A stretch of 64,000 bases of DNA, taken from a virus. Positions 32,276 to 60,854 of the stretch are shown one piece after another. Under the pieces are notes generated by a model that was not told where the DNA came from, ran no database searches, and saw only the letters and a list, made by a program, of their open reading frames with translations. Position numbers and translations under genes: made by a program. The stretch is from positions 45,877 to 109,876 of IMG/VR virus record IMGVR_UViG_3300036800_000175; one strand, given 5' to 3'. Within the stretch, counting starts at the first letter, position 1. Each line of letters opens with the position of its first letter.

Positions 32276-32625
32276 GCTGCGGGCTCCCGCTTCGCGGGCT
32301 GCGGCGTGGATGGTGTCACCCGCGGCCCGGCGATCTTGGCCTCAGCCACCCGGGCGTGAGCGTCGGCGCGGATCTTCGCCGCCGCCTCAAAACCGAGCGG
32401 GTCGGCCTTGCGTACGGTCGGGTCGTTGCACGCCTCGATCAGCTCGCGGGGGTGGGCGTCCTCACGGCCGAGTAGCCGCGACGCGTGGCCGTAGAACTGC
32501 GGCCAGTCCCAGGCCGCGCGGACCTGCGGGTTGGCTGCTGCGCCTTCGAGGGCGCGGGCCCAGTCGGGGCCGCGCATGACGGCGGCGAGGTCGATCAGTT
32601 CACGGTAGGCAGGGTTGATCGTCAT
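32272..32625 (-). CDS. hypothetical protein downstream of initiator (helicase-loader slot)
   Basis: MTINPAYRELID start; ATGA coupling. Confidence 0.55.
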   Translation of the reverse strand: MTINPAYRELIDLAAVMRGPDWARALEGAAANPQVRAAWDWPQFYGHASRLLGREDAHPRELIEACNDPTVRKADPLGFEAAAKIRADAHARVAEAKIAGPRVTPSTPQPAKREPAA

Positions 32626-37330: not shown

Positions 37331-37737
37331 GACCGGGCCGCCTCCCGGTCCTCATCACGCCATCCCGGGGGTTGCCGGGCGCGGTCGGTGTCGATCGCGG
37401 CGACCAGGCGCCGGGCGGCGAAGTACAGGGCTGTCTCAGCGCGCATGAGTGCGGGGACGGAGTCTTCGGTCATGGCCAGTTCGAGTTCGGCCAGCAGCAG
37501 CGCGAGGGCACGGTGTACCGCGTCGCGGGCGGCAGCGGCGACGCCGGGGGTTTCATGGTCGTCGTCCCGCCAGCCTTTGGGTTGCCGGGCACGGTTGGCG
37601 TCCAGGCAGCGGACCAGCCGCCGGCAGGCGAAGTACAGGGCCGCCTCAGTGCCCCGGTCGCGGGCCAGCAGCAGTTTGATGGAATGACGTTTTACGGTCT
37701 CCCGGGCTGCGATCACCTCACCGCCGACTAGGCTCAT
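37327..37737 (-). CDS. hypothetical protein with internal duplication
   Basis: Two E.ALYFA.RRLV..D..RARQP.GWRD.D units. Confidence 0.6.
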   Translation of the reverse strand: MSLVGGEVIAARETVKRHSIKLLLARDRGTEAALYFACRRLVRCLDANRARQPKGWRDDDHETPGVAAAARDAVHRALALLLAELELAMTEDSVPALMRAETALYFAARRLVAAIDTDRARQPPGWRDEDREAARS

Positions 37738-38822
37738 GCGGCCTCGCCGGTGAGTTCGGTGTACCGGGCTTTGAGGTAGTCGATCAGGGGCTCATGGACG
37801 TCGGGGTCGTGGTCAGTGCACACCGACGTGTCTGGCGGGACCTGCTGGCGCTTGCACTGGGCGACCAGTTTGTTGATGTCGTCGCCACTGGTGGCCAGGC
37901 CGGCGAGATCCGCGATCCGCTGCGCCGCGTCCTCTTCGGTGGTGAGCATGGCGGCCAGATCCTCGATCCGCTCAGCGGCATCCTCCGGCGGGGGCACGTC
38001 GCCGGGATTGGCCCGGTCTGCGAGAGCTGCGGGCAGGGCGCGCTGTTCCGGCACGCCCTTCAACTGGGCGATCAGGCCGGCCGGCCCGGCGGGCAGTTGC
38101 CCTTGAGCGATCTGCCGCATGGACAGGCCGATTTGCAGGCTCAGCACCGGGTACGGGCTGCCGTCATCGGCGCGCTTCCGCCAGTGGATGAACAGCACTG
38201 CCGGGAGGTAGACCCCGCCTTCGCGGGCGATTTCCATCGCCTCACCGGAGTCCGCGATCTCTACGGCAGCGTTTTCGCTGCCGGTGTTGATCCTGAACAC
38301 GCCGGTCATGCCGGGCAGGTCGGGGATGGTGACACTGATGCGGGTCAGCACCTTGCACGCCTGCGGCGGCCGCAACTTGGACAGGCGATTGCGCTCATCG
38401 TGGGCGCGGCGCACCGACGCTGCGTCGGTGGGGTCATCGGCCAGCGGGCACATGCAGGACTTGCCTGAGAGTTCCTCAGTGATCCCGTCGCAGCGGCGCA
38501 GGCGGCGCTGGCCGTCCCACAGTTCCATGCTGGTGTCGACCGGCTGGCCGCGGGCGGGCACCCACACGTCCAGGGCGGTGCGGTCGGTGATGACCTCGAA
38601 GTAGCCCCGGCGCTGCGGCCAGGGGGCGACCGTGCCGCTCTCGTAGTGGGCGGCGACCGCCTCAGCAGTCTGCCGGGTGGGGAGGGTGAACCGGAACGTA
38701 TCGAGGCGGACCGGCTGGCGGCCTTTCTTGCCGGGCACCTCCTTGGAGGTGCCGATACGGATCTCACCGAGCGGGAGACTGCGGCGTTGCAGGCCGAGCA
38801 ACTCAGGGGCACGTATGGGCAT
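37734..38822 (-). CDS. Gp3-like (recombination directionality factor-like) protein
   Basis: LGEIRIG...PVRLDTFRFT...ELW....RRCDG...C.C...CK...R.SV.IPDLPG..GVFR..T.S.NAA.E. Confidence 0.65.
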   Translation of the reverse strand: MPIRAPELLGLQRRSLPLGEIRIGTSKEVPGKKGRQPVRLDTFRFTLPTRQTAEAVAAHYESGTVAPWPQRRGYFEVITDRTALDVWVPARGQPVDTSMELWDGQRRLRRCDGITEELSGKSCMCPLADDPTDAASVRRAHDERNRLSKLRPPQACKVLTRISVTIPDLPGMTGVFRINTGSENAAVEIADSGEAMEIAREGGVYLPAVLFIHWRKRADDGSPYPVLSLQIGLSMRQIAQGQLPAGPAGLIAQLKGVPEQRALPAALADRANPGDVPPPEDAAERIEDLAAMLTTEEDAAQRIADLAGLATSGDDINKLVAQCKRQQVPPDTSVCTDHDPDVHEPLIDYLKARYTELTGEAA

Positions 38823-43644: not shown

Positions 43645-44399
43645 GCGGCGGCAGACAGGGACATCCCGCTGGCCAGCAGCGCCTGAGCGCGCCGCTTGAT
43701 GATCAGGTTCCGCGCCGGCCACTCAACGGGGTCGGTGTGCGCCGCGTCCGCAGTCATCTGTGCCGGCCATTTCCGGTACAGCATCCCCACGTCGCGGATG
43801 AACCATCCGGTACTGGTCGCGTTCAAAGCCATCATCAGGCCCGTGTCGGCGCCCGCGGGCAGGGCCATCCACCCGCCCAAAGCCATCAGGGCGCCGTACC
43901 GGATGCACATGGTGGCCGGATGGACCTGAGCCCGGTAGCCGTGGGTGAGCCAGTGGCCCAGCACCGCACCCTGGTCAAGCGTCCCGGTCAGTGGGTCGTT
44001 GCCGAAACCGACGGTGGTGCCGTCGGGCATCAGATCCAGCACCCCGCAGGTCGTCCACATCACATGCGGCCGGGCGGCCAGCACCTTGATTTCCCGGTCC
44101 AGTGTGCCGGGGGTGAGCAGGTCGTCGGCGTCCAGGACCTTGACCAGTTCGCCGTCCGCGCGGGACAGTGCCATGTTCCGGGTGATCGCCTCCCCGCCTT
44201 TGCGGCCGTGCCCGACGCTGATACGCGGATCCAGATCGGTGAGGTAGTCCACGACGCCGGTCTGGCCGTCTTCCTGCACGCACCATTGCCAGTCCCACCC
44301 GCGCGGCATGACCTGCGCGGCCAGCGAGTTGTAGGTGTCGCGGATGTGCCCGGCCGCCGGTGCGTGCACGGGGGTAACAACAGAGACGATGCGGGTCAC
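43641..44399 (-). CDS. GT2-family glycosyltransferase
   Basis: VSVVTPVH, VQEDG, TRNMAL, LDADDLL, LGGW...AGAD, YRKW. Confidence 0.9.
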   Translation of the reverse strand: MTRIVSVVTPVHAPAAGHIRDTYNSLAAQVMPRGWDWQWCVQEDGQTGVVDYLTDLDPRISVGHGRKGGEAITRNMALSRADGELVKVLDADDLLTPGTLDREIKVLAARPHVMWTTCGVLDLMPDGTTVGFGNDPLTGTLDQGAVLGHWLTHGYRAQVHPATMCIRYGALMALGGWMALPAGADTGLMMALNATSTGWFIRDVGMLYRKWPAQMTADAAHTDPVEWPARNLIIKRRAQALLASGMSLSAAA

Positions 44400-45211
44400 G
44401 CTGGCCACCTTTGCAGCTGGGTTGTGTAGGCGAACACGGTCCGGTCGCCCGGCAGGATCACCTCTGAATACTCCGCCACGTCCCCCGCCGTGTCGATAGA
44501 CGTTTTCCGGAGCACCAGCACCGATTCGCCATCGTCAAGATCCAGCAGATGCTTTTCGTCGTCGCTCGCCGGCCGGCCGGTGAGCTCGTCGGTGATCTTG
44601 TCGATCTCGATCCCGACGGTGCGGAGTTGATGCATGGTGCCGCCTGGCCACGGTTCGTTGCCGGAGTCCAGCAGGTCAGGGTTCGCGGCGACCAGGTCAT
44701 AGCGCAGCCACGAGGTGACGATGTTCAGCGGCACGTCTTTCGCCTCGCGGACGCTGGTCGCATAGGTGCGGCGCAGCATCGGGGTGCCTTCGGGTATCCC
44801 GAATCGTTCCGCGACATCCCCGGGCGCGGCCGTCATCTCATAGCCCGCAGTGAACAGCAGGTCGCCCATTTCAAGGCCGGTGTCGTGCTCGGTGGCACCC
44901 GTCTCACCCCGCTCGAGCGGCGTGAGCAGCGCCCGGTCCTTTTCCCACTGGTAGCGGGTGGTGTGGTCGCGGCGCACAGGGTGACGCGGGATCCGGACGA
45001 ACGTCCCCCGGCCTTTCTCAGTGCGGATTAGTCCTTCGCCGCGGATGACGTCGATCGCGTGCCGGACCGTGGTCCGCGACACCCCGTAGGCGGCGGCGAG
45101 TTCAGGTTCGCTTGGCAGCTTCTCCCCCGGGCCCAGGTCGCCGCTCGCGATCCGCTCGCGCAGGCCGGCGGCTACCTGGATGTGCTGCGGCCGGTAGTCG
45201 TGTGTGGTCAC
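44396..45211 (-). CDS. GntR/HutC-type repressor with UTRA domain (Kor-like)
   Basis: LPSEPELAAAYGVSRTTVRHA...GRGTFVR plus C-terminal UTRA; divergent from transfer-like operon. Confidence 0.9.
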   Translation of the reverse strand: MTTHDYRPQHIQVAAGLRERIASGDLGPGEKLPSEPELAAAYGVSRTTVRHAIDVIRGEGLIRTEKGRGTFVRIPRHPVRRDHTTRYQWEKDRALLTPLERGETGATEHDTGLEMGDLLFTAGYEMTAAPGDVAERFGIPEGTPMLRRTYATSVREAKDVPLNIVTSWLRYDLVAANPDLLDSGNEPWPGGTMHQLRTVGIEIDKITDELTGRPASDDEKHLLDLDDGESVLVLRKTSIDTAGDVAEYSEVILPGDRTVFAYTTQLQRWPA

Positions 45212-45240
45212 GGACCACAAGTTAACACGCCGGTATGTCT

Positions 45241-45298
45241 ACCTGTCTGAACAGGTTGGCGTGAACCTGTTGACATGTCTGCCAAGTCTGCTTACGCT
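45241..45298 (+). promoter_or_regulatory. sigma70-type promoter with adjacent GntR-type operator
   Basis: TTGACA(45270)-N17-TACGCT(45293); palindrome ACCTGT-CTGA-ACAGGT 45241-45256. Confidence 0.75.
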
Positions 45299-45347
45299 GG
45301 CAACAGCGCAGAACATGGCAGACATGCCTACAGGTTGGAGACAGCCG

Positions 45348-45599
45348 ATGACGGACGGCGCCGGAACCGTAGCCCCACTCCCCCACCTGGGGGAATGGCT
45401 GCCGCCGAAGGAAGTCGCCCCCAAGCTGGGGGTGTCCTGGTCCACCGTCTACAGGCTGATCCGATCAGGTGACCTCAAGGCCCGCCGTATCGGCCGGGGC
45501 CGGGGCACCCTCAAAGTTGAGATCAGCGAGATCACCCGCTACCTGGACAGCGCCGAAACGGCAGCAGCAACTGACCTGCTCACGGCGGTGCCGGCGTGA
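45348..45599 (+). CDS. excisionase-like (HTH_17) DNA-binding protein
   Basis: WLPPKEVAPKLGVSWSTVYRLIRSGDLKARRIG. Confidence 0.85.
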   Translation: MTDGAGTVAPLPHLGEWLPPKEVAPKLGVSWSTVYRLIRSGDLKARRIGRGRGTLKVEISEITRYLDSAETAAATDLLTAVPA

Positions 45600-45916
45600 T
45601 CGCCGTCGGCGCGGATGACCGCGAAGTGATCTTGCGGATCGCGTCCTCAATCACCAGAGCCCAGCACGACCCGATCGAGGTCGTCCGGAACTCAGTCCCG
45701 ATGCTCACCTGGCTCGAGCACGCCACCGATAAGGGTGACCTGGCTCACCGCCTTGAGGCGCTGAACCGGATGTGGTGCAACCTCCCCGACTCCGATGACC
45801 GCGGCCCGGTCCTCGACTCACCCGCCGCGTTCGTCGTCGGGGCGGAGATCTTCTACCTGTTCGCGACCGGAGACCCGGAGATTCCCGACGGCCTGACCGG
45901 CGGTGACGCCGTATGA
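45596..45916 (+). CDS. hypothetical protein
   Basis: GTGA coupling. Confidence 0.6.
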   Translation: MIAVGADDREVILRIASSITRAQHDPIEVVRNSVPMLTWLEHATDKGDLAHRLEALNRMWCNLPDSDDRGPVLDSPAAFVVGAEIFYLFATGDPEIPDGLTGGDAV

Positions 45917-46176
45917 ACCGCGTCTGCCCCCGCGACGGCACCGTCCTTGACGGCGGCCCGGTCGTGTTCTGGTGCTCCGGCCGCGGCCGGGATGTCCACG
46001 GCAGCTGCGCTCCCCTCGCGGTGACGCACGCTCCCCATGATCGCGTGGCGGGCCGGGCATCGGCCACCCCCGAAGCCGGGCCGGCCCGCCACGCCCACGA
46101 ACGCGCGGCCGGGCGCGGGCATGCCCCGGCGCCCGGCCGCGCCTCCCAGCCAGCAGCAGCGGAAGGGGGTGCGTGA
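45913..46176 (+). CDS. small Cys-containing hypothetical protein
   Basis: CPRDG...GPVVFWC; coupled. Confidence 0.5.
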   Translation: MNRVCPRDGTVLDGGPVVFWCSGRGRDVHGSCAPLAVTHAPHDRVAGRASATPEAGPARHAHERAAGRGHAPAPGRASQPAAAEGGA

Positions 46177-46457
46177 TGGCCGACGTCCTCGTCCCCCTGG
46201 ACTCCGTCGGGATCATGCTCGCGGCCGACGACGCCGCGGACGACCGCTGGCAGGAACGCGCGCTGTGCGCCCAGACCGATCCGGAGGCGTTTTTCCCGGA
46301 GAAGGGCGGCAGCACCCGCGAAGCCAAGAAGGTGTGCCGGGCCTGCGAAGTCCGCGTCGACTGCCTTGAGTACGCGCTCGCGCGGGACGAACGCTTCGGG
46401 ATCTGGGGCGGACTGTCGGAGCGGGAACGCCGCCGGATGAAGCGCGAGGCGGTCTGA
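46173..46457 (+). CDS. whiB: WhiB-family Fe-S transcription factor (WhiB/WhiB2-like)
   Basis: WQERALCAQTDPEAFFPEKGGSTREAKKVC..C.V...CLEYAL..DERFGIWGGLSERERR. Confidence 0.95.
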   Translation: MMADVLVPLDSVGIMLAADDAADDRWQERALCAQTDPEAFFPEKGGSTREAKKVCRACEVRVDCLEYALARDERFGIWGGLSERERRRMKREAV

Positions 46458-46458
46458 G

Positions 46459-46992
46459 ATGGGCGCCGCAGCCTTCGTGGGCTCGGCCTTCGTCGCCGGC
46501 ATGGCGATAACCGTCGTCGCGCACGGCGGGATCCCGCTGGCCCACGCCACCAGTCAGGGCGGCCACGGTGCCCCGGCGCGGCCGGCGGCAGTGACGCGGG
46601 CGATCAGCTACGCGTGGGCCCAGGTCGGCAGGCAACCGTACTGCTGGGGTGGGACCGGCGCGTCGTGCCCGAACCCGCCATACCACGGCTACGACTGTTC
46701 CGGCCTGATGTTCAAGGCCTACGGCTTCCCGCCCGGCCTGCGGACCTCGCAGCAGCAGTGGGCTGGCCTGCCGCACGTCCCCGCCAGCCAGGCCCGGCCC
46801 GGCGATCTCGTCTTCGCGCCCGGCAGTGACGGGACGCGGGCCAAGCCCGGCCACGTCGGCATGCTGCTCTCCCGTGACCGCGTCGTGCAGGCGTACGCCC
46901 CCGGCTACCTGGTCAGCGTCACGTCGCTCAGCAACTTCGCTGCCGGCGCCGGCGGGATCACCGGCTTCGCACGCCCCACCGGAGGTGCCTGA
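46459..46992 (+). CDS. secreted NlpC/P60 peptidoglycan endopeptidase
   Basis: PYCWGG, YDCSGL, PGDLVF, GHVGM; N-terminal signal/TM. Confidence 0.9.
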   Translation: MGAAAFVGSAFVAGMAITVVAHGGIPLAHATSQGGHGAPARPAAVTRAISYAWAQVGRQPYCWGGTGASCPNPPYHGYDCSGLMFKAYGFPPGLRTSQQQWAGLPHVPASQARPGDLVFAPGSDGTRAKPGHVGMLLSRDRVVQAYAPGYLVSVTSLSNFAAGAGGITGFARPTGGA

Positions 46993-47132
46993 TGCTCGGC
47001 AAGATCATCGGCTGGATCATCATCATCCTCACCGTCGTGTGGGTCCTCACTAACCCGCATCACGCTGCGGACGTCGTTCACGGCTGGCTCAGCGGGATCG
47101 CGTCCTGGCTCTGGGAGAGGTGGCACCTGTGA
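46992..47132 (+). CDS. 46-aa membrane peptide (not in ORF track)
   Basis: MLGKIIGWIIIILTVVWVLTNPHHAADVVHGWLSGIASWLWERWHL*; GGAGG RBS. Confidence 0.65.
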   Translation: MLGKIIGWIIIILTVVWVLTNPHHAADVVHGWLSGIASWLWERWHL

Positions 47133-47647
47133 GCCGCCGCAGCAGCAGCGGCCGCGGGACGGGTGCCGCTGTCGCGGTGGTGGCCGGGCTGTACCTGTCA
47201 TCCACGATGCACCCCCACGGGTCGCCCGCAGCGCAGCCCCCCGCGCATCATCACCACGACCGCGCCTCCCTGACGTCCATGCCGCAGGGAAACGGGGGGA
47301 CGCCCAGCCAGAACCGGGCGCTCGCGAACGCGATGGCGGCCCGCCGCGGGTGGACCGGCGCGCAGACGCAGTGCCTGGACACGCTGTGGATGGGTGAGTC
47401 CGCGTTCGACCAGTTCAACACCTACCCCAGCCACGACACCTCGCCGTCGACGCCCGGTTCGCAGATCACGACGGCGTACGGGATCCCGCAGGCGCTCCCG
47501 GCGCAGAAGATGGCCGCTGCCGGAGCGGACTGGCAGACCAACCCCCGCACACAGATCAGATGGGGCCTGGGCTACATCCAGGCGACCTACGGCTACCCCT
47601 GTACGGCCCTGAACTTCAAGACCACGCACGGAAACAAGGGCTACTAG
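47129..47647 (+). CDS. lytic transglycosylase-like (SLT-type) protein
   Basis: CL..LW..ES...AYGIPQALP..KM..AG.DWQTNP.TQIRWGLGYI..TYG.PC. Confidence 0.85.
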   Translation: MSRRSSSGRGTGAAVAVVAGLYLSSTMHPHGSPAAQPPAHHHHDRASLTSMPQGNGGTPSQNRALANAMAARRGWTGAQTQCLDTLWMGESAFDQFNTYPSHDTSPSTPGSQITTAYGIPQALPAQKMAAAGADWQTNPRTQIRWGLGYIQATYGYPCTALNFKTTHGNKGY

Positions 47648-47678
47648 CCCACCACCCCCACGAAAGGAAACCCCGTCC

Positions 47679-47864
47679 ATGCAGCACACCGGCTTCAACT
47701 ACTGGATCCACCACGGCAGCGGCGGCGTCATGTTCGGCCTGCTGATCGCATTCCTGGTCCTGGTCGTCATCCCTGTCGCGCTCATCATCGAGGGGCGCAT
47801 GAAGGCCAGCCGTGCTGAGGCCGCCCGCGCCGAGGCCCGCGCCGCCAGCCGCTACGCCGGCTGA
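47679..47864 (+). CDS. small single-TM protein
   Basis: AAAGGA RBS, hydrophobic core. Confidence 0.6.
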   Translation: MQHTGFNYWIHHGSGGVMFGLLIAFLVLVVIPVALIIEGRMKASRAEAARAEARAASRYAG

Positions 47865-47881
47865 CCCACTCTCTAACCGCT

Positions 47882-48289
47882 TTGACACACCCCGTGGAAG
47901 GGCCGGCGACCGTGCCAGACATCACCGACCAGCGGCTGCGGGATCTGCTCCGCCGCCTGCCCGACGTGCCCGACGACCTTGTCTGGCGCGCGGTGCAGGC
48001 GGAGGACAAGATCCGGAAGGCCCTCGCAGGCCCGGAGCCGGACTCGCGGGCAGCACGGAACATCGCCTTGCAGTTCTTGCAGGCCGAGCTCACCAACCGG
48101 CGCAAGGCCGGCCTGATCAGCACATCGCTGATTGAGGTGCAGCTCGCCGGCACGACCCTCGCCATCGGGATCGAGATCCACAACTGGACCCCGGACCGGC
48201 CCGCCGGCCCGTGGCCACCCGGTGGCGGCCAGCTGACGGATGTTTTCTTCCGGAACCTCACTGCAACGTTGGAAGGAGATCAGCAGTGA
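47882..48289 (+). CDS. hypothetical protein
   Basis: In operon, start uncertain. Confidence 0.55.
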   Translation: MTHPVEGPATVPDITDQRLRDLLRRLPDVPDDLVWRAVQAEDKIRKALAGPEPDSRAARNIALQFLQAELTNRRKAGLISTSLIEVQLAGTTLAIGIEIHNWTPDRPAGPWPPGGGQLTDVFFRNLTATLEGDQQ

Positions 48290-49080
48290 CACACGGCCTG
48301 ACCGCGCTGCGGGACCTGGCACACAACAGGGGAAGCAGCGACGCCAGCCAGGCGGCCCCCGGCCCGGGCGCCCCCACCGATGAACTCGCCGCGGAACTCG
48401 CGGCGTCCCGCGAATGGCTGGACCGCGAGCTGGCTGCCTCAGCCGCCGGCGGCACCATGCCACCGCCGCGCCAGCCGGCCCCCGGGCCCGCCCCGGCCGG
48501 GCCGGCCAGTACGGAACCGATCATCCGCCTGCGTGAGGGCCGCAAGATGACAGTCGGGAATGAGGCCCGCGCTGTCGTGGGCCAGGTGTGGCGGCAGGCT
48601 CGCCGGAATCTCCGTGAGATGCGGCACCACCCGGGCGGGATGATCAACGGCTGGCTCGCGGCGCAAGGCCCGTCGGTCGATGACCAGATCGCGTACAAGC
48701 GGGAAAAGCGGTGGGTGCCCCTCGGTCATGACGACGGGGTGGCGGACAAGGCCGGCACCGCGTACCAGACCGTGATCGGTGTCCCGGGTGTGGCGTTCTT
48801 CGGTGCCTGCAAGGCGATCGTCGCCCGGCCGTTCCGGTTCGGGGCCACATTCTTCGCCTGCTACCTGCTCACCGCGTTGACGCTGATCCTCGCCCAGCCG
48901 CGGATCGCCGGGGTGGCCATGCTCATTTGCCTGCCCATCGCCGTGATCGCCGCCCTGATCGGCTTGGAGGGCTGGGCCGCCGCGTCCCGCCGCGCCAGCC
49001 AACCGCAGCCACCCGACGACGAAGACGACGACGAAGCCGAGGACGACGACCCGGCCGGCTACGAACCCCCATCGGAATAA
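48286..49080 (+). CDS. membrane protein (Spd-like slot)
   Basis: AAGGAG RBS; C-terminal TM helices, acidic tail. Confidence 0.65.
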   Translation: MTHGLTALRDLAHNRGSSDASQAAPGPGAPTDELAAELAASREWLDRELAASAAGGTMPPPRQPAPGPAPAGPASTEPIIRLREGRKMTVGNEARAVVGQVWRQARRNLREMRHHPGGMINGWLAAQGPSVDDQIAYKREKRWVPLGHDDGVADKAGTAYQTVIGVPGVAFFGACKAIVARPFRFGATFFACYLLTALTLILAQPRIAGVAMLICLPIAVIAALIGLEGWAAASRRASQPQPPDDEDDDEAEDDDPAGYEPPSE

Positions 49081-49084
49081 GGGA

Positions 49085-49972
49085 ATGATCATGCACGCAC
49101 ACACGGTCGCGCTCGCGGCCAACCACGCCGCCGCGCTGACCCCGCCGCACGCGCACGGCTCCGTCATCGTGCTCGCCGTGCTCGCCGGCGCGGCCGGCCT
49201 GACCCTGTGGGCGTTCAGGTACACCCGCCGGCTGGTGTGCTGGCTGATCGCGTTCGCCGCCGGGATCTGCGCCATCGGGGTCGGCGTGTGGTCAGACGCC
49301 CTGGTCGCCCTGGTCACCAGCGGACCCGGCCAGATCGCGCTGATCGTGATCGTTTTCGCGTCCGGCATCACGTTTTACCTGGTCGCGGTGCATGACGCGC
49401 AAGGCCGCAAGATCCGGCAGGCCAAAAGGAAGCGCCGCAAGGACAAGAAGGACCGCGGGCGCGACGACTACGACGATGACGTCAGCGCGGAACTCGCCCT
49501 CACCGGCGGGAAAGAGATCGTGATCCCGCGGCGCAGCAACACGCTGGATCGCCGCAGCCACCACCACCACATCGGCTCCCCGGCGGTCGCCGCGATCTTC
49601 GGCACGTCGTTTTCCCTGCTGGTGATCACCTTCGGGCTGATCATGACGGACCTGTGGGAGTCGTTCACGTCGCTGGGCAGCACCGTCGCGACCCAGTCCG
49701 GCCGGGCCAGCTCCGGTAAGGCAGCGGCCGCCGCGGTGGCCGGGCATGGCCAGTCGCCCGGTCACATCGTGCTGATCGGCGCGGCGATCCTCATCGCGGT
49801 CCTGTACGGCGGTCACCGGGTCTCACGGCGGATCCACGGCGACAAGAACAAGAACAACGACGGCGGCAACGGCGGCGGTGGCGGCCGGGGCGGCCGGAAG
49901 AAGCGCGGCCGTAACCGTGGCGGCGGCCAGGTGCAGAACAACCGGCCCACGCAGGAACTGGGGTGGCACTAA
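49085..49972 (+). CDS. multi-pass membrane protein (Spd-like slot)
   Basis: About 5 hydrophobic helices. Confidence 0.7.
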   Translation: MIMHAHTVALAANHAAALTPPHAHGSVIVLAVLAGAAGLTLWAFRYTRRLVCWLIAFAAGICAIGVGVWSDALVALVTSGPGQIALIVIVFASGITFYLVAVHDAQGRKIRQAKRKRRKDKKDRGRDDYDDDVSAELALTGGKEIVIPRRSNTLDRRSHHHHIGSPAVAAIFGTSFSLLVITFGLIMTDLWESFTSLGSTVATQSGRASSGKAAAAAVAGHGQSPGHIVLIGAAILIAVLYGGHRVSRRIHGDKNKNNDGGNGGGGGRGGRKKRGRNRGGGQVQNNRPTQELGWH

Positions 49973-49975
49973 CCC

Positions 49976-52018
49976 ATGGCTGGCATGCAGCAGCAGGGAA
50001 GCGAAGCCCGGGTCGTGGAGGCTGAGCATCACGGCCTGCTGGTCCCGTTCTACTGGATGTTCGCCTCCGATGCGACCGTCCTGGCTGCCTCCCTGCTGCT
50101 GCCGTCCTGGCGGCTGCTCATCGCCGCCGTGGCCGCCGCGCTTGCGATCGGCAGGCAGGTCCGGCAGGTCCGCCGGATCGAGGATGAGATAGCGGAGGCC
50201 ACCGGGCAGCCGGTGGTCCGCCACAAGCCACCCATCCTGCGGTGGACGCTCGGCACCCTGTGGCTCCTGATCGCCGCCGCGGCCGGGCTGCGCCTGGTCC
50301 CGCAGGTGGTGATGCAGATCCTGCTGATCATCGGCGTGTACGCGATCGCGGCGAAGCACTGGTCCCGCAACCGGGTGCCGCACGACGCCCCGCACACCCG
50401 CATCATCACCTCTGGTGCCACCGTGATCCTGGACGACGACGACGCCCAGGCCGCACCGCCGCAGGCCGCACCGTTCGCCACCCCACCCGGCCCGCCGCCC
50501 ACGCCGGCCCCGCCGCCGCCCGCACCGGCCCCTGCGGAGAGTTCCTATGTGGTGCCCCGGATGGGCACCCTGGCCGCGGGTGTGGTCGCGGCGGCCCGCA
50601 CCGCAGCCAACGATTCCGTGATCCGGGCGCTCACCGAACTGTTTGACCAGTTCAAGGTGGACGCCCGGGTCACCGGCTTCAAACGCGGTCCGACGGTCAC
50701 CCGGTATGAGGTGGAACTCGGCCCGGCAGTGAAAGTTGAGCGGGTCACCGCCCTGACCAGGAACATCGCGCTCGCGGTCAAGACGGCGGATGTGCGGATC
50801 TTGTCGCCGGTCCCGGGAAGATCCGTGATCGGCATTGAGATCCCCAACGCGGACAAGGACCTGGTCCGGCTGGGGGACATCCTCCGCTCACCCGCCGCAC
50901 TGATGGACCCCCATCCGATGGTTGTGGGGCTCGGCAAGGACGTTGAGGGCCGCACCGTCATCGCGAACCTCGCGAAGATGCCTCACATGCTCATTGCCGG
51001 CGCGACCGGCGCGGGGAAATCCACCTGCATCTACGGGCTGATCACCTCAATCCTCATGCGGGCCACCGTTGAGGACGTCCGGATGATCCTGATCGACCCC
51101 AAGCGGGTCGAACTGGCCATCTACGCCGGCATCCCGCACCTGTACACCCCGATCATCACCAGCGCGAAGAAAGCCGCTGAGGCCCTGGCGTGGGTGGTCG
51201 GGGAGATGGACCGCCGCTACGACGACCTGGCCGCGTTCGGGTTCCGGCATATAGACGACTTCAACGCCGCGGTCCGCGGCGGCAAGGTCGTCCTCCCGCC
51301 GGGCAGTGAGCGGATCCTCAGGCCGTACCCGTACCTGCTGGTCATCGTGGATGAGCTGGCCGACCTGATGATGGTCGCCCCCCGCGACGTTGAAGACTCG
51401 ATCGTCCGGATCACCCAGCTGGCCCGCGCCGCCGGGATTCATCTGGTGCTCGCCACCCAGCGGCCGTCAGTGGACGTGGTCACCGGGATCATCAAAGCCA
51501 ACGTGCCCGCCCGGCTCGCGTTCGGCACCTCAAGCCTCACCGACAGCCGGGTCATCCTCGATCAGCCGGGCGCGGAGAAACTCGTCGGGGAAGGCGACTG
51601 CCTGTACCTGCCGATGGGGGCGAGCATCCCCACCCGGCTGCAAAACGCGTTCGTCACCGAAGGCGAAGTCCGCGACGTGGTCGCCCAGTGCAAGGCGCAG
51701 GGCTCACCGGAATACCGCGAAGACTTCACCACGCCAGACCGGGCGGCCCGGGAAATAGACGCGGAAATCGGTGACGACCTGACGCTGCTCAGGCAAGCCG
51801 CCGAACTTATCATCCGCACCCAATTCGGCTCAACATCAATGCTGCAACGCAAACTCCGCGTCGGGTTCGCGAAAGCGGGCCGGCTAATGGACCTGCTCGA
51901 GGCACGGCAGATCGTCGGACCCTCCGAAGGGTCGAAGGCCCGCGATGTCCTGGTCCGCCCCGACGACCTGACCCAGACGCTCGCAGCCCTGGACCCAGAC
52001 AGTGAAAGGACCACCTGA
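49976..52018 (+). CDS. ftsK: FtsK/SpoIIIE DNA translocase (TraB-like role, host-type motor and gamma domain)
   Basis: [69 protein letters not shown]; N-terminal TMs. Confidence 0.95.
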
Positions 52019-52575
52019 TGGACCACCTGACCATGTGGACCATGGCCCACCGGGCCATGAGCCACCCCGCATGGACCACCCTGGCCGGAGGGACCACCGC
52101 AGGGGCCGGCGTGGGCCACACCGTGGGCCACGCCGCCGGGAGGATCGCGGCCAGCCTGGGTCACGACGCCGTCACCCACCCAAAGTGGGCCGCCGGGGTC
52201 GCCGTAGTGATCGCCGTCGCCGTGTGGATTGGCGTGCGCCGCCGCGGGGGAGCGAGGCGGCGCCCCCCCGTGCGGGTTCCGCATCACGATCATGGCGGCG
52301 GCGGTCCGTGGCTCGGCCTGGGCGTCGCGGTCGGGGCGCTCGTGTTCGTCATCGTGCTGGTGGCCAACTGGAAGCCCGCCACGCCCGTCAGGCACACCGC
52401 CGCGCCGACGCCGACGCCGACGGTGACGCACACGACCATCGTCCAGCACATCACCCACGTCACCCATGTGACCCGCGCGGCCGCCACCCATATCCCCGAC
52501 GGCCTGTGGTGGGTCGCGGGGATCACCGTGGTCGCCGTGGTGGTCATCTACCTCAACCGCCGGAGGTCGTCATGA
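52018..52575 (+). CDS. three-TM membrane protein (Spd-like slot)
   Basis: TGATG coupling with ftsK. Confidence 0.65.
   Translation: MDHLTMWTMAHRAMSHPAWTTLAGGTTAGAGVGHTVGHAAGRIAASLGHDAVTHPKWAAGVAVVIAVAVWIGVRRRGGARRRPPVRVPHHDHGGGGPWLGLGVAVGALVFVIVLVANWKPATPVRHTAAPTPTPTVTHTTIVQHITHVTHVTRAAATHIPDGLWWVAGITVVAVVVIYLNRRRSS
52019..52130. repeat. TGGNCCA heptamer cluster 1
   Basis: 6 perfect copies (52019, 52036, 52043, 52072, 52112, 52124) plus degenerate copies. Confidence 0.85.
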
Positions 52576-53762
52576 CTGACCTGCGAAACCCCTCCCCTCC
52601 CCCGGGGGAGCACCCCTCCCCGGCGGCCGATGCGCATACGCCCATGCGCGCATCCGCGGATGCGCGCATGCGCGCGGGCGCGCGTCAGGATAAGGCAGAC
52701 CCGGCCGAACCGGCCGGAGCCACGCCGGCGGTACCTGAACCCCCCGGGATCGACTGGGTTTCCTCCGCTGGCGGGGCCCTGGTCGGAGGCTTGTGCGCGG
52801 CCCTGACGTGGTCCGGCGGTTACGAGTTCGCCCAGCAATGCGACTGGCCCGCGGCGCTCGCCTGGATCCTGCCGCTGATCACGGACATCTACGCCGGGGT
52901 TGCCCTGTGGATCATGCTGGGCCTGCGCTGGGCCAGCACGGAAACCCGGCACTTCGCCGCCGGATCCACGGTCCTCGCGGTCGCGGCGTCGGTCGCCATG
53001 CAGATCATGTACCACATCCTGCTGAACTCGCCCGGCCACAAGCCCCCCGTGGGTGTGGTGGTCGCCGTGTCGGTGGTCGCCCCGATCATGCTGGCGCTCA
53101 CCGCGCACCTGATGGCCCGGGTCAACGGTGACCGCGGCGAGCTGGTCAGGGCCGCACACCAGGCGCAGGCCCGGCACGCTGAGACGCAACGGGCGGAAGC
53201 CGAGACGCGCGCCGAGACGCAGCGGGCGGAGGCTGCCCGGGTCGCCGCTGACCGTGCCGCCACCGAACGCGCGGCGGCTGAGGCGGACGCAGCCCGGGCG
53301 GCAGCGGCGCGGGCCTCGGGCGAGTTGGCAGTTTGGGAGGCGCAGCGCGCCGCAGCCGCCCGGGAGCGCGCCGCAGCGGATGGGCCACCGATGGGCCACC
53401 CCGCCGGCGTGGACCATGGGCCAGGCACGGCCGGTGGACCATCCGCAGGTGACGTGGACCATGGGCCAGACGGCGGGGTGGACCATGGTCCACCCCCAGC
53501 CGATGGGCCAGACGACGGCGACGACCCCGACGCGGCGTGGACCCTGCCCGACGGTGAACGCGACGAAAAAGGCGACCCCGGCGACATTTACGTCCAGGCC
53601 CGCAACGCGTTCCGGCAAAGCTGCCGCGACGGAAAGCCGCTGAGCCCCCGCGCGATCGCCGCGATGTTCCCCGGCAAGTCCCGCAATTGGGGCAAGACAC
53701 GCATCACCGAAGTCAAGAAAGGGATACACGGGATACGCCTCGCCCGCGCGGCAGGCGAGTAA
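52572..53762 (+). CDS. DUF2637 / Spd-like membrane protein with coiled coil and C-terminal HTH
   Basis: LTWSGGYEFA...AWILPLITD; four TMs; PLSPRAIAAMFPGKSRNWG. Confidence 0.7.
   Translation: MTDLRNPSPPPGEHPSPAADAHTPMRASADARMRAGARQDKADPAEPAGATPAVPEPPGIDWVSSAGGALVGGLCAALTWSGGYEFAQQCDWPAALAWILPLITDIYAGVALWIMLGLRWASTETRHFAAGSTVLAVAASVAMQIMYHILLNSPGHKPPVGVVVAVSVVAPIMLALTAHLMARVNGDRGELVRAAHQAQARHAETQRAEAETRAETQRAEAARVAADRAATERAAAEADAARAAAARASGELAVWEAQRAAAARERAAADGPPMGHPAGVDHGPGTAGGPSAGDVDHGPDGGVDHGPPPADGPDDGDDPDAAWTLPDGERDEKGDPGDIYVQARNAFRQSCRDGKPLSPRAIAAMFPGKSRNWGKTRITEVKKGIHGIRLARAAGE
53381..53510. repeat. TGGNCCA heptamer cluster 2 with 22-bp palindrome
   Basis: 10 perfect copies; GGGGTGGACCATGGTCCACCCC at 53475-53496. 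Confidence 0.9.
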
Positions 53763-53792: not shown

Positions 53793-54527
53793 ATGACAGC
53801 ACCAGCCGTCCAGACCGTCTATGAGGCATGCGAGGAAATGCTCACCCGCTACACCCCGGTCGCCACCCGCGTCGAAGGACACAACAGGTCGATCGTGATC
53901 CGCGCCGGAGGTAATAGCCACACGTTCTACGTGCTGGCGCAGGACCTGGACGACGGCACCTGCCACCTGTTCCCGTGGTACACCGGGCTGTCCAGGACCA
54001 CCGTGATCACCCCCGGCCTGGATGTCCGCGCCGTCCCCAAGCATGCCGTCCAGCTGCTCAGGCATGGTGTGCCCGTCCCGCAGCACGGGATCGCGTTCGG
54101 CTGGGTTGGCCGTGGCGACCGGGTCACCGCCCTGGTCCCGGTCGACGTTGAGTACCGCCCGGACAAGCCGCTGCCGACGTTCGCTGTGATGCCGCATGAG
54201 GACGCCGGACGCAACGACTGGCCGCCGTTCTATAACGCTGAGGTGTTCGGCCCGGAGATGTGGGAAGCCCAGCGGGCGGGCCGGCTGGTGGTCCTGGACG
54301 ATGCGATCGCCAGCACCGCCCAGAACGTCTCCTGGATCGAGCGGACCGACGGGGAGGCCGCCAGTTACTGTGACGTGGGCACCGATGTCGCCTGGGATGG
54401 GTTCACCATCCCGGCCGGCCGGTACGCCTACTGGCGGCGCCTGCTGTCCCGCGACCGCCGCTGGCCGTCGCCCACCGAACTGCTTGATAACTACACCGCA
54501 TCCGACCTGGCCCCCCGCTTCCGCTGA
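53793..54527 (+). CDS. hypothetical protein
   Basis: 244 aa, AGGAG RBS. Confidence 0.7.
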   Translation: MTAPAVQTVYEACEEMLTRYTPVATRVEGHNRSIVIRAGGNSHTFYVLAQDLDDGTCHLFPWYTGLSRTTVITPGLDVRAVPKHAVQLLRHGVPVPQHGIAFGWVGRGDRVTALVPVDVEYRPDKPLPTFAVMPHEDAGRNDWPPFYNAEVFGPEMWEAQRAGRLVVLDDAIASTAQNVSWIERTDGEAASYCDVGTDVAWDGFTIPAGRYAYWRRLLSRDRRWPSPTELLDNYTASDLAPRFR

Positions 54528-54544
54528 CCCAAGGGGGCCTCCCC

Positions 54545-54856
54545 GTGAGCACGCTGACTGAGACAAGCCCGCCCGCCGCTGAGCGCAGCCCGGCCGGACC
54601 CAGCGTCGGGCCCTGCCGGTTGTGCAAGGCGGTCGCCTACGGGGGCGACGCTGACGGGCCGGTCCACGCGTGCTGCTTCGAGTGGCGGGCCGCGATCGCC
54701 GCCGGGCTGTCCTGCCCGGCGTGCGACGCGGCCCGCCTGTCACGGGCACGCGGCCGGATCGTCCCGCCGCGGCTGCCCCGCAAACTCCCCGACGGCCGGC
54801 CCCTCGTCCCGGGCCTGCCCGTCACCCCGGATCAGGCAGAATCAGCGGCATGCTGA
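54545..54856 (+). CDS. Cys-rich hypothetical protein
   Basis: CRLC, HACC, CPAC. Confidence 0.55.
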   Translation: MSTLTETSPPAAERSPAGPSVGPCRLCKAVAYGGDADGPVHACCFEWRAAIAAGLSCPACDAARLSRARGRIVPPRLPRKLPDGRPLVPGLPVTPDQAESAAC

Positions 54857-54877
54857 CCCTGCAACATCAACGATGAG

Positions 54878-55701
54878 GTGCAGGCCCGCATCTGGAACGA
54901 CTCGCGGCTGCCACCCGGAACCCGTGAGCTCACCCTCGCGATGATGTGGGTGCTGCACCGCGAACCGGAGCATCCGCCGGGCGGCGGGTACTGGCGGCGG
55001 GTCCGTGAACTACTCGGCCGCGCCGGGGTCATCACCCGCGCCGGCCACGGGTGGCGGATTCATGACCTGGTAGCCGGCGACGCACCCCGCTACGACCCGG
55101 GTGGCTATTCCTGGGCGAACGGGTCGTGTGAAGGGCCGCGGGTCCGCCCGTACCGGCCGCGCCGCCCCGCCCAGCAGCCGGATCGCTGCCTGGTGTCCGC
55201 GCATCACCCCCACCTCGGGGACTGCCGCTACACCCAGGTCCACTACGCCGGCGGTGACTTCCTGTCCGGCGGGCATCCGCTCACCGGGACGACCACCACC
55301 CGCCCGGACGGCTGGCCCGGTGAACCGGACCGCGACGACCGGGTGTGCGGCGCGCACGCCACCATCGCTGTCACCGAATACGACATGGTGACCGGGTGGG
55401 AAACGGTCCACTGGTTCTGCACCCGGCACCGCGGCCGGGCCGCCGAAGTGTGAAAACCCAGCTCGCCGCGAAAGGTCAGCCGCCGGATCCGATCCCGAAC
55501 CATGGCGGGCACCTGCCCCGCTACTTCACCGCCGACTGGGCGGCGATCTACGCCCGGCATTGCGGGCTGTCGCTGCGGCCGGGGGCGACGTGCTGGCGGC
55601 CGCCGTATCACGGGCTGAACGCTGACGACTGGCCCGTGCCGGGCCGCACCCCGGTCCCGCGGCGGCCACGCCTGTCCATCGTCACCGCCGACGTCTCATG
55701 A
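54878..55701 (+). pseudogene. hypothetical gene, possibly split by a 2-nt duplication at 55450
   Basis: GAA GTG TG AAA; downstream frame continues KTQLAAKGQPP...GGHLPRYF. Confidence 0.35.
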
Positions 55702-55969: not shown

Positions 55970-56308
55970 TCAGGCCATCGCGGCCTGGCGGGCCTGGCGG
56001 GGCGTGCTCGAATCACATTCGATGCACGCGTAACCCTCAGGCGGCGTCCCGCCGCACCATTCACACGGCAGCGGCGTGATCATCTCCGTCGGCGTCCTGC
56101 CGAAAACCTGGGCCATCCGGTCGACAGTGTCAAGCCCGGTCTGCCGGCCCGCCTCAACCAGGTTGACCGTCGCAGCGGGTTTAGCGGCACCCGGGTTGAA
56201 CAACTCACCCAGTTTCTCCTGTGACCAGCCCCGCGCGTTGCGGAGCTGGAACACGTTGGCGGCGAAGATGCCGGCGCTGGTCGGCTGGGGGGTAGCGTCC
56301 GTGGTCAA
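55970..56308 (-). CDS. XRE HTH regulator with C-terminal Zn ribbon
   Basis: FAANVFQLRNARGWSQEKLG...VEAG...LDTVDRMAQVFG; CEWC...CIEC. Confidence 0.75.
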   Translation of the reverse strand: MTTDATPQPTSAGIFAANVFQLRNARGWSQEKLGELFNPGAAKPAATVNLVEAGRQTGLDTVDRMAQVFGRTPTEMITPLPCEWCGGTPPEGYACIECDSSTPRQARQAAMA

Positions 56309-56657
56309 GAGAATGACCTTTCCCGGCCCCCCGGCGCCGCAGCGCCCCGGGGCCGTTTCCATGCGCAGGCAGGCATCCCCTGGCCTGCGCGAACCTGGGG
56401 TTAGGGCCGGGGCAGGAACGGCCGGCATCCCTGCGGGGAGGGGGGGAAACCCTCCGGGATGGTGCCGTCCCTGCCCCCGGCGAGACGGCACCGGCCAGTA
56501 GCCATAAAGCCACGGCAAGTTACCGCCCTGGGAGCATTCTGGATCACCGCAGGTAACCTGTCCACCCGCATCCACCAGCAGGTACCTGCGAATAACCGTG
56601 GTGTCATGCCATGCTTGCGCCGCCCCCCGCTTTGCCTAGGCAACCCGGGGGCGGATT

Positions 56658-57506
56658 GTGGCGATTCAGCGGCCATGCGCACGACGCGAACGGTGCCGGT
56701 CCGCAGAAACCACCGTCATAGACGGCGAAACCATCACCACCCCAGCGCAAACACCCGGCACATACTGCCGCTCCGACCGGAACCTGATCTACCGCAGCCT
56801 GGCCAGCCTCCCCGAACTGTGGGTCCGCCTGCACCTCGAGCTATCGGTCAAAGCCACCGCGTCCGGCGATAAGGTCGCCGGGTCACGCACCCCGCCCGTC
56901 CCACCGAACCTGGCTGCGGACGCCCTGATGCGCGAAACCCTCACCGTCCTCGCCGCGTGGGATGAGCGGATCCGCACCGCCGCCCACCTGACCCGCCCCG
57001 ACACGCAACTGTCCCGGCTCCGCCGCGACGGCCCGGCGCTGGACGGCATGGTCCGCACCTTGCTCGCCCACCTGGACGGCCTGCTCGCCCTGCCTGCGGA
57101 TGCGATGTGCCGCGCATACCCGATCGACTCCCATGAAGACATCGGCCGTCTCCCCGAAGGCTGCTACGGCCGGTCGAATCGCACCGGCGGATACGCCGAT
57201 GTCGCAGTTGAGCTCTCGGGCGCGGACGCCGGTGAGGATATCCTGCGGCTGCACCACCGGGCCCGCGCGTTCCTGGGTGAGACCCGGATGTGCGAGCGGC
57301 TGGACGTGCCGTGCCCGGGTTGCGACCTGCTCATGCTCGAGCGGCGGCAAGGCTCGGAGTACGCGGCGGAATGCCGCGAATGCGGGCGGCTGCTCACCAC
57401 CCCTGAACTGCATCAGTGGGCCCGGCTGTTCGCCGCCCACCTGGTCGCCGTCGGTGTCGCCACACCGGCCCATCTCGCCGCCGCGGGCATGGCCGCCGCA
57501 TCGTGA
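56658..57506 (+). CDS. conserved actinophage protein with C-terminal Zn ribbon (late-regulator slot)
   Basis: PPVPPNLAA...VPCPGC...ECRECG. Confidence 0.6.
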   Translation: MAIQRPCARRERCRSAETTVIDGETITTPAQTPGTYCRSDRNLIYRSLASLPELWVRLHLELSVKATASGDKVAGSRTPPVPPNLAADALMRETLTVLAAWDERIRTAAHLTRPDTQLSRLRRDGPALDGMVRTLLAHLDGLLALPADAMCRAYPIDSHEDIGRLPEGCYGRSNRTGGYADVAVELSGADAGEDILRLHHRARAFLGETRMCERLDVPCPGCDLLMLERRQGSEYAAECRECGRLLTTPELHQWARLFAAHLVAVGVATPAHLAAAGMAAAS

Positions 57507-59645: not shown

Positions 59646-59903
59646 GTGATCACCACGCTGATCACCCGCGGAGACGGCTACATCACCGGCCCCCAAGCCG
59701 CCCAGCTCGCCGGCGTAGACCCGGCCACGATCCGCAAATGGCGGCAACGCGGCCACCTGCGGGCACGCGGCCTGGACGAACACGGCAACCCGCTGTACCA
59801 CCCCGACGACGTCGCCCGCGCCGACAAACACGTCCGCGACAACGGGCTCCGCACCTCCGGGATCGACCCGCGGGCGCTGCGGCAGCGGAAGGCGGCGGCC
59901 TGA
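59646..59903 (+). CDS. MerR-type HTH DNA-binding protein
   Basis: TGPQAAQLAGVDPATIRKWRQRGHL...PLY. Confidence 0.8.
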   Translation: MITTLITRGDGYITGPQAAQLAGVDPATIRKWRQRGHLRARGLDEHGNPLYHPDDVARADKHVRDNGLRTSGIDPRALRQRKAAA

Positions 59904-60383: not shown

Positions 60384-60854
60384 ATGCCAGCAGCCAACCC
60401 CCTGCGTGACGCGCAGGCCCTCGGCTACCGCGCCCGCGGCTGGACGTATGAGCGCATCGCGAACGAGATGGGCTACGCCAACCGTTCCGGAGCCCAGAAA
60501 GCCGTGGAACGGGCCATGGCTACCGCGGTGCGGGAAACCACTGAGGCGGCCAAGACGCTGCTGCTGGCCGACCTGAACGCGCTCAAGAAAGAAGCGTGGG
60601 GCGTGCTCGAGGCGACCCACATCACCGTGTCGCATGGCCAGGTCGTCAGGATCGAAGGCCCGGACGGTGAGAAAGTCCCCATCCCCGACGATGGGCCGGT
60701 GCTGAACGCGATCGACCGGATCGTGCGGATCGACGCGGAGATAGCGAAGATCTACGGTGCCTACGCACCGACCCGCAGCGAGGTGCTGACCATGGACGCG
60801 GTAGAGGCGGAGATCGTCCGCCTCGAGGCGGAAGTCGGCCGCGCTGCCGACTAG
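60384..60854 (+). CDS. terminase small subunit (putative)
   Basis: RARGWTYERIANEMGY...GA..AV.RA HTH; AIDRIVRI; directly before terL. Confidence 0.7.
   Translation: MPAANPLRDAQALGYRARGWTYERIANEMGYANRSGAQKAVERAMATAVRETTEAAKTLLLADLNALKKEAWGVLEATHITVSHGQVVRIEGPDGEKVPIPDDGPVLNAIDRIVRIDAEIAKIYGAYAPTRSEVLTMDAVEAEIVRLEAEVGRAAD

Follow-up and report, generated by a model that had tools for sequence, protein, structure and literature searches.

A conserved FtsK-centred membrane operon in a lineage of large soil actinophages, a candidate module for DNA transfer

We analyse the last 64 kb (bases 45877-109876) of the 109,876-bp IMG/VR viral record IMGVR_UViG_3300036800_000175. This whole stretch of 64,000 nucleotides is called the window, and positions refer to it unless the record is named. 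At 45.2-55.7 kb it holds about 18 translationally coupled genes on the plus strand, among them the gene of an FtsK-type DNA pump. Judged from sequence, the operon belongs integrally to, and is conserved in, a lineage of temperate, siphovirus-type actinophages with genomes of about 100-120 kb. An earlier note had read it as a conjugation operon of the TraB/Spd type inside a tailed-phage genome. We put the probability at roughly 0.5 that the operon encodes a membrane apparatus for the translocation of double-stranded DNA (dsDNA) that is TraB/Spd-like but independently built.

Neighbouring genes in the run overlap by 1-13 bp or are separated by gaps of at most 31 bp. The common orientation, the tight coupling and the contents first described (helix-turn-helix (HTH) and WhiB proteins, NlpC/P60, a transglycosylase, membrane proteins, FtsK, repeat arrays) are all present. 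The run does not end at 53762, as first read: four more genes carry it to 55701, about 2 kb further. A search of IMG/VR for FtsK gave 74 loci for comparison. The genes of the run and its right border are (aa, amino acids; TM, transmembrane segment):

45348-45599, plus: first gene, HTH_17/excisionase-MerR-type protein (Pfam HTH_17 E=1.5e-8; TIGR01764)
45596-45916, plus: unknown 106-aa protein, coupled by a 4-bp overlap
45913-46176, plus: possible 87-aa open reading frame (ORF) after the 106-aa gene
46173-46457, plus: WhiB-family regulator (Pfam Whib E=1.3e-26)
46459-46992, plus: NlpC/P60 peptidoglycan endopeptidase, predicted to be secreted or membrane-anchored (NLPC_P60 E=1.3e-12; N-terminal TM/signal)
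46992-47132, plus: 46-aa protein with one predicted TM
47120-47647, plus: transglycosylase-like wall protein with an aggregation-promoting-factor C-terminal-like domain (NF052397 76.7 bits; phrog_12661 'transglycosylase' E=5.7e-24)
47679-47864, plus: 61-aa protein with one predicted TM
47882-48289, plus: u135, small soluble protein, first gene of the core cassette (homologues in 9 loci)
48286-49080, plus: M264, second cassette gene, 3 TM (homologues in 13 loci)
49085-49972, plus: M295, third cassette gene, 5 TM, conserved His residues and a basic Gly/Arg tail
49976-52018, plus: membrane-anchored FtsK, 680 aa (FtsK_SpoIIIE 208.3, FtsK_alpha 89.2, FtsK_gamma 79.5 bits)
52018-52575, plus: 185-aa His/Thr-rich protein with three predicted TM
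52572-53762, plus: 396-aa divergent DUF2637-like protein (3 TM, Ala/Arg/Glu coiled coil, basic HTH-like C-terminal tail)
53793-55701, plus: four further coupled genes from ORF calls, encoding u244 and proteins of 103 (Cys-rich), 191 and 83 aa
55902-55974: inverted repeat with 32-nt arms, 81% complementary, closing the operon just before the convergent gene
55970-56362, minus: convergent HTH_3 gene that ends the run

The pump begins with a phage-specific N-terminal domain with three TM, which a Pro-rich linker joins to the alpha, beta and gamma domains. All three C-terminal domains exceed their gathering scores, which makes it a chromosomal-type FtsK. Both Walker motifs of the motor, A (GATGAGKS) and B (DELAD), are intact, so that in its predicted features, an FtsK/SpoIIIE motor with membrane association, the protein is also TraB-like. 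Across Actinomycetota, chromosomal FtsKs share 65-76% identity with residues ~187-672. For residues 1-186, which hold the three TM and conserved motifs, the only matches are viral contigs, and no N-terminal Pfam match to the divisome-targeting 4TM domain of FtsK was found.

In a FastTree phylogeny of 105 sequences the pump falls into a clade made up only of viral-contig copies and a plasmid copy (pSROS01, NC_013596; support 0.81). A second mobile-element clade holds pVMKU (NC_015409) and other viral copies (support 0.90), and both clades are nested within actinomycete chromosomal diversity. The gene is 74-80% identical at the DNA level to plasmid matches from Streptosporangium, Micromonospora, Verrucosispora and Actinomadura. 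Matches to FtsK by tblastn occur in 489 phage records; they cover at most 68% of the query, its alpha/beta/gamma part. Among phage protein families the pump matches phrog_1358 (E=1e-98).

The three proteins encoded directly upstream of FtsK have no family match in Pfam, NCBIfam or PHROGs. The alignment of u135 suggests a small helical protein of low information content. The M264 family has a soluble N-terminal part with a conserved S..Y..R.WVP motif, followed by 1-3 TM, and the M295 family has 4-5 TM. An exhaustive profile search among 1.84 billion proteins found M295 in 161 representative clusters. Neither M264 nor M295 has a tblastn match in cultured phages. The M295 profile has no match in 401 sampled Actinomycetes genomes under a strict pre-filter, and no usable match in the ESM Atlas.

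The cassette recurs with its surroundings. ORF calling and clustering find u135-M264-M295-FtsK in at least nine viral loci, and four other loci have a 4-TM variant in place of M295. Genes for GntR, WhiB, NlpC/P60 (homologues in 7 loci) and the transglycosylase-like protein lie upstream of the cassette in several loci; homologues of u244 occur in 3. Downstream, most loci that reach that far contain u282, an HTH gene, u126, the small terminase TerS and the large terminase TerL. Four other records of 104-120 kb have FtsK upstream of a TerL 53-68% identical to that of the window: L018, L019 (G007), L031 (G004) and L035 (G005). Terminal repeats are present in two of the four, L019 and L031. Protein identities to the modules of the relatives are 25-65%, and hence the module appears to be old and vertically inherited within the lineage. 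It is absent from the two cultured phages closest by TerL, Streptomyces phage TurkishDelight (55% TerL identity) and Actinoplanes phage phiAsp2 (53%). In the window, u282 and the HTH gene at 59646-59903 form the conserved connection from the FtsK module to the packaging genes. The phage genes on both sides are:

465-1313 (strand not stated): endolysin, apart from the operon
56658-57506, plus: u282, DNA-binding protein (phrog_1568)
60384-60854, plus: probable small terminase, assigned by position (matches phrog_645)
60862-62541, plus: large terminase TerL (phrog_2 E=5e-29)
63369-63998, plus: N-terminal half of a Mu-like portal protein (PF06074, phrog_113), with its C-terminal half at record bases 1-834

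The operon was earlier placed between an immunity switch and the terminase, with the endolysin elsewhere. The positions of TerL and of the endolysin bear this out. The switch is not confirmed; 41-42.6 kb holds only small HTH genes.

The surrounding genome is that of a tailed phage, as the earlier note had supposed, and it is complete; circular permutation, bridging contigs and recurrence beside homologous terminases agree on this. CheckV gives the record 100% completeness, and a codon-likelihood gene caller finds 184 genes. The record has a siphovirus-type set (TerL, portal, minor head, major head (phrog_1650), tape measure, tail, endolysin), and thus the full virion, packaging and lysis complement expected of a phage-plasmid. 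Both ends of the record fall in one portal gene, so the record is a whole phage genome in circularly permuted form, and it has no host flanks. Joined directly, the portal halves are out of frame, and about 22 codons (~65 bp) are missing compared with the intact portal of the relative L018. On this sequence evidence the assembly is a nearly closed circle.

Contiguity, one of the checks proposed earlier, holds. In the source soil metagenome, which holds 96% of the stretch, Logan contigs tile 42-62 kb; they show 0 mismatches, and their depth is even at ~9-10x. Independent contigs bridge both borders of the operon, and the GC content is ~70% throughout, without a shift at the operon. A chimera or a separate insert, the outcome that would have spoken against the earlier reading, is not borne out. 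Relatives that are 90-95% identical are present in soils of three other studies. The description as a 110-kb soil actinomycete phage rests on a metagenomic record; the nearest cultured relatives and the plasmid matches all come from mycelial genera.

The phage most likely persists as a plasmid prophage. A single maintenance gene was found in the record:

7881-8543, minus: ParA-type partition ATPase (AAA_31 E=1e-18, MipZ, CbiA)

No tyrosine or serine recombinase was found in the record with PF00589 and PF00239, for which positive controls were included, and no Rep protein was identified. A maintenance gene without an integrase is the combination looked for in a phage-plasmid, and it fits the plasmid prophage first proposed. 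The five FtsK-bearing relatives G004-G008 each have 1-2 tyrosine integrases, one of which in G004 lies between the FtsK module and the terminase. A plasmid prophage is probable here because the integrase of the relatives is absent and ParA is present. For the ParA of the window, four of these five relatives have no homologue and G008 has one weak match of 18.8 bits. Such an exchange of integrase and partition genes is known from cluster A mycobacteriophages (PMC7157519), and ParA without integrase here, with integrases in the relatives, looks like their maintenance swap. The module had been tied to plasmid life. Since the five integrase-bearing relatives keep it, it is independent of that lifestyle. 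Despite the lack of an integrase, there is a Gp3-like gene at 37734-38822 (minus; PF18897, recombination directionality factor-like, E=2e-28).

The control region of the operon resembles those of actinomycete transfer operons:

44396-45220, minus: GntR/HutC-type regulator with winged HTH and UTRA domains (PF00392 E=1e-20, PF07702 E=6e-17)
45203-45219: perfect palindrome TGTGGTC-ACG-GACCACA at the start of the GntR gene, read from the sequence
45264-45336: inverted repeat of 24 nt between the divergent genes, 88% complementary, in which ATGTCTnCC and ACAGGTTGG half-sites recur

The divergent GntR gene of the first reading is confirmed: it is transcribed away from the operon that it faces. Its protein is 33% and 29% identical to the GntR proteins of the plasmids pSROS01 and pAGRA3207_1 (NZ_CP059573), which have the same position there. 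The protein is a candidate Kor/TraR-like repressor by analogy, and the palindrome is a candidate HutC/DasR-type operator. A divergent GntR gene with operator-like repeats between it and the operon is the layout of Kor/TraR systems, and repression would follow from it. The first gene of the operon has its longest ORF from 45204, although the true start is likely to be the ATG at 45348 behind a GGAGA ribosome-binding site, which gives a protein of ~83 aa. It occupies the slot of a BldC-family gene on the compared plasmids.

Two more gene products of the run need comment. The transglycosylase-like protein has no Pfam match. The 396-aa protein downstream of FtsK had been called a DUF2637 protein. 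It has three TM, and the family assignment stays below threshold (PF10935, 18.9 bits against a cut-off of 22.8, E=7e-5 per genome; 14.1 bits, E=0.046 with hmmscan). By hhalign its 3-TM domain is homologous to a protein of the pVMKU FtsK operon (96%), while the DUF2637 protein of pSROS01 gives 9%. Its ESM-Atlas neighbours are DUF2637 clusters (0.84-0.86, 177-183 shared features), which is a lead only. The gene starts at 52572 and not at 52002 or 52644, as indicated by an ATGA overlap with the upstream stop and by homologues that cover 100% of the query.

Two repeats lie in this gene:

52632-52683: array of GCGCATGC x6.5 with 8-bp period, partly palindromic, in the 5' coding part of the DUF2637-like gene
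53169-53247: 33-bp coding repeat inside the DUF2637-like gene region

The GCGCATGC array lies 614 bp downstream of ftsK, and no other short-period array of the 110-kb genome reaches six copies. We regard it as a candidate cis site, either clt-like or regulatory. Clt-like arrays of relatives consist of 12-mers in L018 and L029 and of 11-12-mers in pSROS01; unit and position vary. In pSROS01 an intergenic 11-12-bp array (12716-12781, x5.9) precedes the FtsK gene by ~140 bp. Upstream of its own FtsK, the viral relative L018 carries a pair of 12-bp arrays in inverse orientation, at 7290-7356 and 8248-8338 (GGGTAACAGCCG x5.6, CGCCGTTACCCC x7.4). The arrays of pSROS01 and L018 are candidate cis sites as well.

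How could such an operon work? If it serves transfer, then lifting of the GntR repressor would switch it on. The exported hydrolases would open the cross-wall or the envelope locally. The membrane partners would place the FtsK hexamer at this opening, presumably away from the divisome, because its N-terminal domain is phage-specific. FtsK would then pump double-stranded phage or plasmid-prophage DNA into a neighbouring hyphal compartment or an adjoining hypha. The outcome would be a capsid-free route both of spread and of inheritance. GntR repression, the formation of a complex, and the direction and substrate of pumping are steps that we infer. The gene make-up, the GntR layout and the clustering of FtsK with FtsKs of plasmid operons speak for a transfer operon as first proposed; kinship with TraB and Spd does not, and transfer would be a function deduced from the former.

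Several observations weigh against a TraB/Spd-like transfer apparatus. The identity of the pump as a TraB-family protein is rejected: it is a true alpha/beta/gamma FtsK, its best NCBIfam model is PRK10263 FtsK with 398 bits, and NF041214 plasmid_TraB reaches 68.6 bits against a cut-off of 800. The control, pIJ101 Tra of the TraB type, scores 38.8 bits on the PF01580 motor and has neither alpha nor gamma. The 25-residue recognition core of gamma is identical to that in FtsKs of Streptomyces, Micromonospora, Mycobacterium and Bifidobacterium. As the core is of host type, the pump would read host-type polar motifs, which makes a private clt doubtful and weakens the array as a TraB-style clt. The GCGCATGC array itself lies in coding sequence, and neither its position nor its sequence is conserved in relatives. 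The phage genome shows no polarised octamer and no classical bias of FtsK-orienting polar sequences, KOPS (GGGNAGGG occurs 15 vs 17 times per strand).

The partners of the pump add to these doubts. Homology of the membrane proteins to Spd, which had been proposed, is not detectable by hhalign (0.2% probability for pIJ101 SpdB, the Spd protein compared). 'Spd-like' is therefore an analogy only. M264-M295 DNA has no blastn match in plasmids, and the three compared plasmids carry no homologues. An 18-bp exact direct repeat (CGTGCCGTGCCCGGGTTG) at 41120 and 57305 flanks 16.2 kb that include the operon. And WhiB together with FtsK also suits a role in host development or segregation, which is the current view in the literature (PMC10117723, PMC13587820).

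This last role is the alternative that survives best, although we consider it unlikely. Here the FtsK paralogue and WhiB would act at host septa, and no DNA would pass between cells. The pump could clear the plasmid prophage, or replicating phage DNA, or move it into prespore or daughter compartments, activate Xer-type dimer resolution by way of gamma, or take part in reprogramming septation in favour of phage production. A gamma core identical to that of chromosomal FtsK, and an alpha/beta/gamma part 65-76% identical to it, are what one would expect of such a protein. WhiB in the same operon points the same way, because phage whiB, ftsK, parB and ssgA are treated as genes for manipulating host development (PMC10117723, PMC13587820), and so does SsgA in the equivalent pSROS01 operon. 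For a phage maintained by ParA, moreover, faithful inheritance matters. However, a segregation module leaves much of the operon unexplained: two exported wall hydrolases, phage-specific membrane partners, a replaced N-terminal targeting domain, and Kor-like GntR control, which is typical of kil and transfer operons. The integrating relatives need no plasmid segregation, yet they keep the FtsK module.

Alternatively, the operon could act on the envelope and have no part in moving phage DNA. It might exclude superinfecting phages, block incoming conjugative or phage DNA, or help lysis and release in the mycelium. Wall hydrolases and many small membrane proteins suit such functions, the module sits just upstream of the late genes, and PHROGs classes phage FtsK/SpoIIIE-like proteins as 'moron/host takeover'. 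But neither exclusion nor lysis calls for a complete, highly conserved, ATP-driven dsDNA motor whose gamma domain reads DNA, and such a motor is costly; for lysis the phage has its separate endolysin. We regard an envelope function as improbable.

An assembly chimera, or a plasmid segment or actinomycete integrative and conjugative element (AICE) that was recently inserted and rides along, is very improbable and is rejected: FtsK DNA close to plasmid genes, the CGTGCCGTGCCCGGGTTG repeat and the two closest cultured phages without the module would fit it, but the same arrangement recurs in independent records from other samples at 50-68% protein identity, a sign of old vertical inheritance, depth is uniform across bridged borders without a GC break, the segment has no integrase or rep gene, and the right repeat copy lies inside the conserved u282. 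The repeat is probably due to chance: both copies are inside genes, no integrase lies between them, and the longest direct repeat in 30 shuffles was 16 bp.

The reading we prefer, an independently built dsDNA-translocation apparatus, allows a further step that we hold to be a long shot. A pump with the gamma core of the host in a phage-specific membrane complex might move any DNA that bears host-type polar motifs, including the host chromosome, across cross-walls or into adjoining hyphae. If this were true, infection or lysogeny by these widespread soil phages would bring about capsid-free, conjugation-like gene flow, and a replicating phage genome could pass compartment barriers.

The operon itself has consequences for how such elements are found. 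Surveys of phage-plasmids and conjugative elements that use relaxase and type IV secretion system (T4SS) profiles, for example CONJscan (PMC7969092), cannot see FtsK-pump systems. A membrane operon centred on FtsK and under Kor-like control appears to have long been retained by a lineage of large soil actinophages, both integrating and plasmid-type. This suggests that the phage life cycle has a second step independent of virions, a spread through compartmented hyphae, into spores or into neighbouring cells. M264, M295 and u135 are new protein families found with the pump, and they may be the parts of a septal DNA channel. Should the function be confirmed, the line between phages and conjugative elements would blur in the main antibiotic-producing bacteria. 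It would also bear on how phages escape containment by hyphal cross-walls.

Other parts of the genome hold further observations. Inside a 338-aa gene (32622-33638) there is a 24-bp tandem repeat (33200-33264, x2.8) that contains a palindromic unit of 12 bp (TGTCGCGCGAC x4) and could be a partition or origin site. The early leftward block encodes a second large P-loop ATPase of 568 aa (18841-20547, minus), which matches DUF87/HerA and the 'terminase large subunit'-like phrog_2666 and adjoins a SLOG/YspA-like gene (18299-18844). At 28918-30206 and 30242-31009 (both minus), QueC (E=8e-67) and a radical-SAM, QueE-like gene stand beside a gene for an unknown 255-aa protein and form a probable 7-deazaguanine DNA-modification module. 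Toxin-like or enzyme domains are present in two proteins of the head region (record 8112-9353 and 10303-10959), of which one matches an ADP-ribosyltransferase phrog and the other the minor-head phrog_16619, with kinase/ATPase-like matches. Finally, an orphan homologue of TerL (55% aa identity) is found on a 245-kb linear plasmid of Streptomyces sp. NBC_00464 (NZ_CP107900.1, 62554-64176). It sits among insertion sequence elements and defence genes, with no other phage gene or FtsK context nearby.

Mycelial actinomycetes move DNA by FtsK-like pumps and not by type IV secretion. The C-terminal winged helix of TraB reads plasmid-specific 8-bp repeats, the TraB recognition sequences (TRS) of the clt locus. 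The TraB/clt/TraR(KorA) and Spd systems of Streptomyces plasmids and AICEs (pSVH1, pIJ101) share with the phage operon a divergent GntR-family repressor gene and a translationally coupled operon; in pIJ101 the GntR gene is divergent from tra-spdA-spdB. Both have a membrane-associated, hexameric dsDNA pump of the FtsK/SpoIIIE superfamily that ends in a winged helix, along with several small integral membrane proteins and proteins that interact with peptidoglycan. A short repeat array lies near the pump gene in both. The phage pump, in contrast to pIJ101 Tra, has alpha and gamma domains, a gamma of host type and a far higher score on PF01580 (208 vs 38.8 bits). Its partners are unrelated to SpdA and SpdB, its wall hydrolases are explicit enzymes, and the replicon is a 110-kb tailed phage.

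Closer to the phage operon are the FtsK operons of pSROS01, pAGRA3207_1 and pVMKU. They have the same alpha/beta/gamma FtsK, with 60-69% aa and 74-80% nucleotide identity, in shared clades of the tree. These small plasmids of Streptosporangiales and Micromonosporales and the phage have in common a divergent GntR gene, a small HTH gene as the first of the operon, a 3-TM protein that is DUF2637-like, and ParA on the replicon. On pSROS01 and pAGRA3207_1 the opening gene is of the BldC type and FtsK ends the operon; that of pSROS01 includes a DUF2637 protein and SsgA. A difference is that u135, M264 and M295 are missing from the plasmids, where the genes upstream of FtsK encode other large membrane proteins or a type IV coupling protein. 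Their FtsKs are longer (811-907 aa) and have different N-termini. We found no experimental characterisation of the three FtsK operons in the literature. On pVMKU (10533-15041) the gene immediately upstream of FtsK encodes a T4SS coupling protein. Such a pair of two types of DNA translocase is unusual, and the viral-classified contig L012 shares it (coupling-protein cluster c64 and FtsK).

Among phages, the nearest known case is pZL12/phiZL12. According to the passages on it in PMC3583192 (citing Zhong et al. 2010, J Bacteriol 192:3747) and PMC4487206, it is a tailed Streptomyces plasmid-phage, a ParAB plasmid whose conjugal transfer uses one main tra gene together with two genes next to it. 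It has been described as a singleton (PMC7157519). Like the phage studied here, it is a plasmid-type tailed phage with a partition gene, a likeness that holds at the level of the published description and not gene by gene. For phiC31 and VWB, Thoma 2015 found SpdB2 homologues and proposed that they help to spread phage DNA (PMC4447253). Hence the general idea of Spd-aided spread of phage DNA is known (PMC4447253), together with, as far as its published description goes, one cultured example, pZL12 (PMC3583192).

The FtsK/SpoIIIE-like 'moron' genes of cultured actinophages and Bacillus phages (phrog_1358, phrog_3551) share the FtsK-family ATPase with the operon. In cultured phages these genes are discussed as single development genes, whereas here FtsK forms the centre of a GntR-controlled operon that has about 18 genes and includes conserved membrane partners. 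What is new is the type of module, which is conserved across a group of phages of 100-120 kb, one of them now maintained by ParA: an FtsK that is bona fide alpha/beta/gamma but has its membrane domain replaced, new families of partners, and explicit hydrolases.

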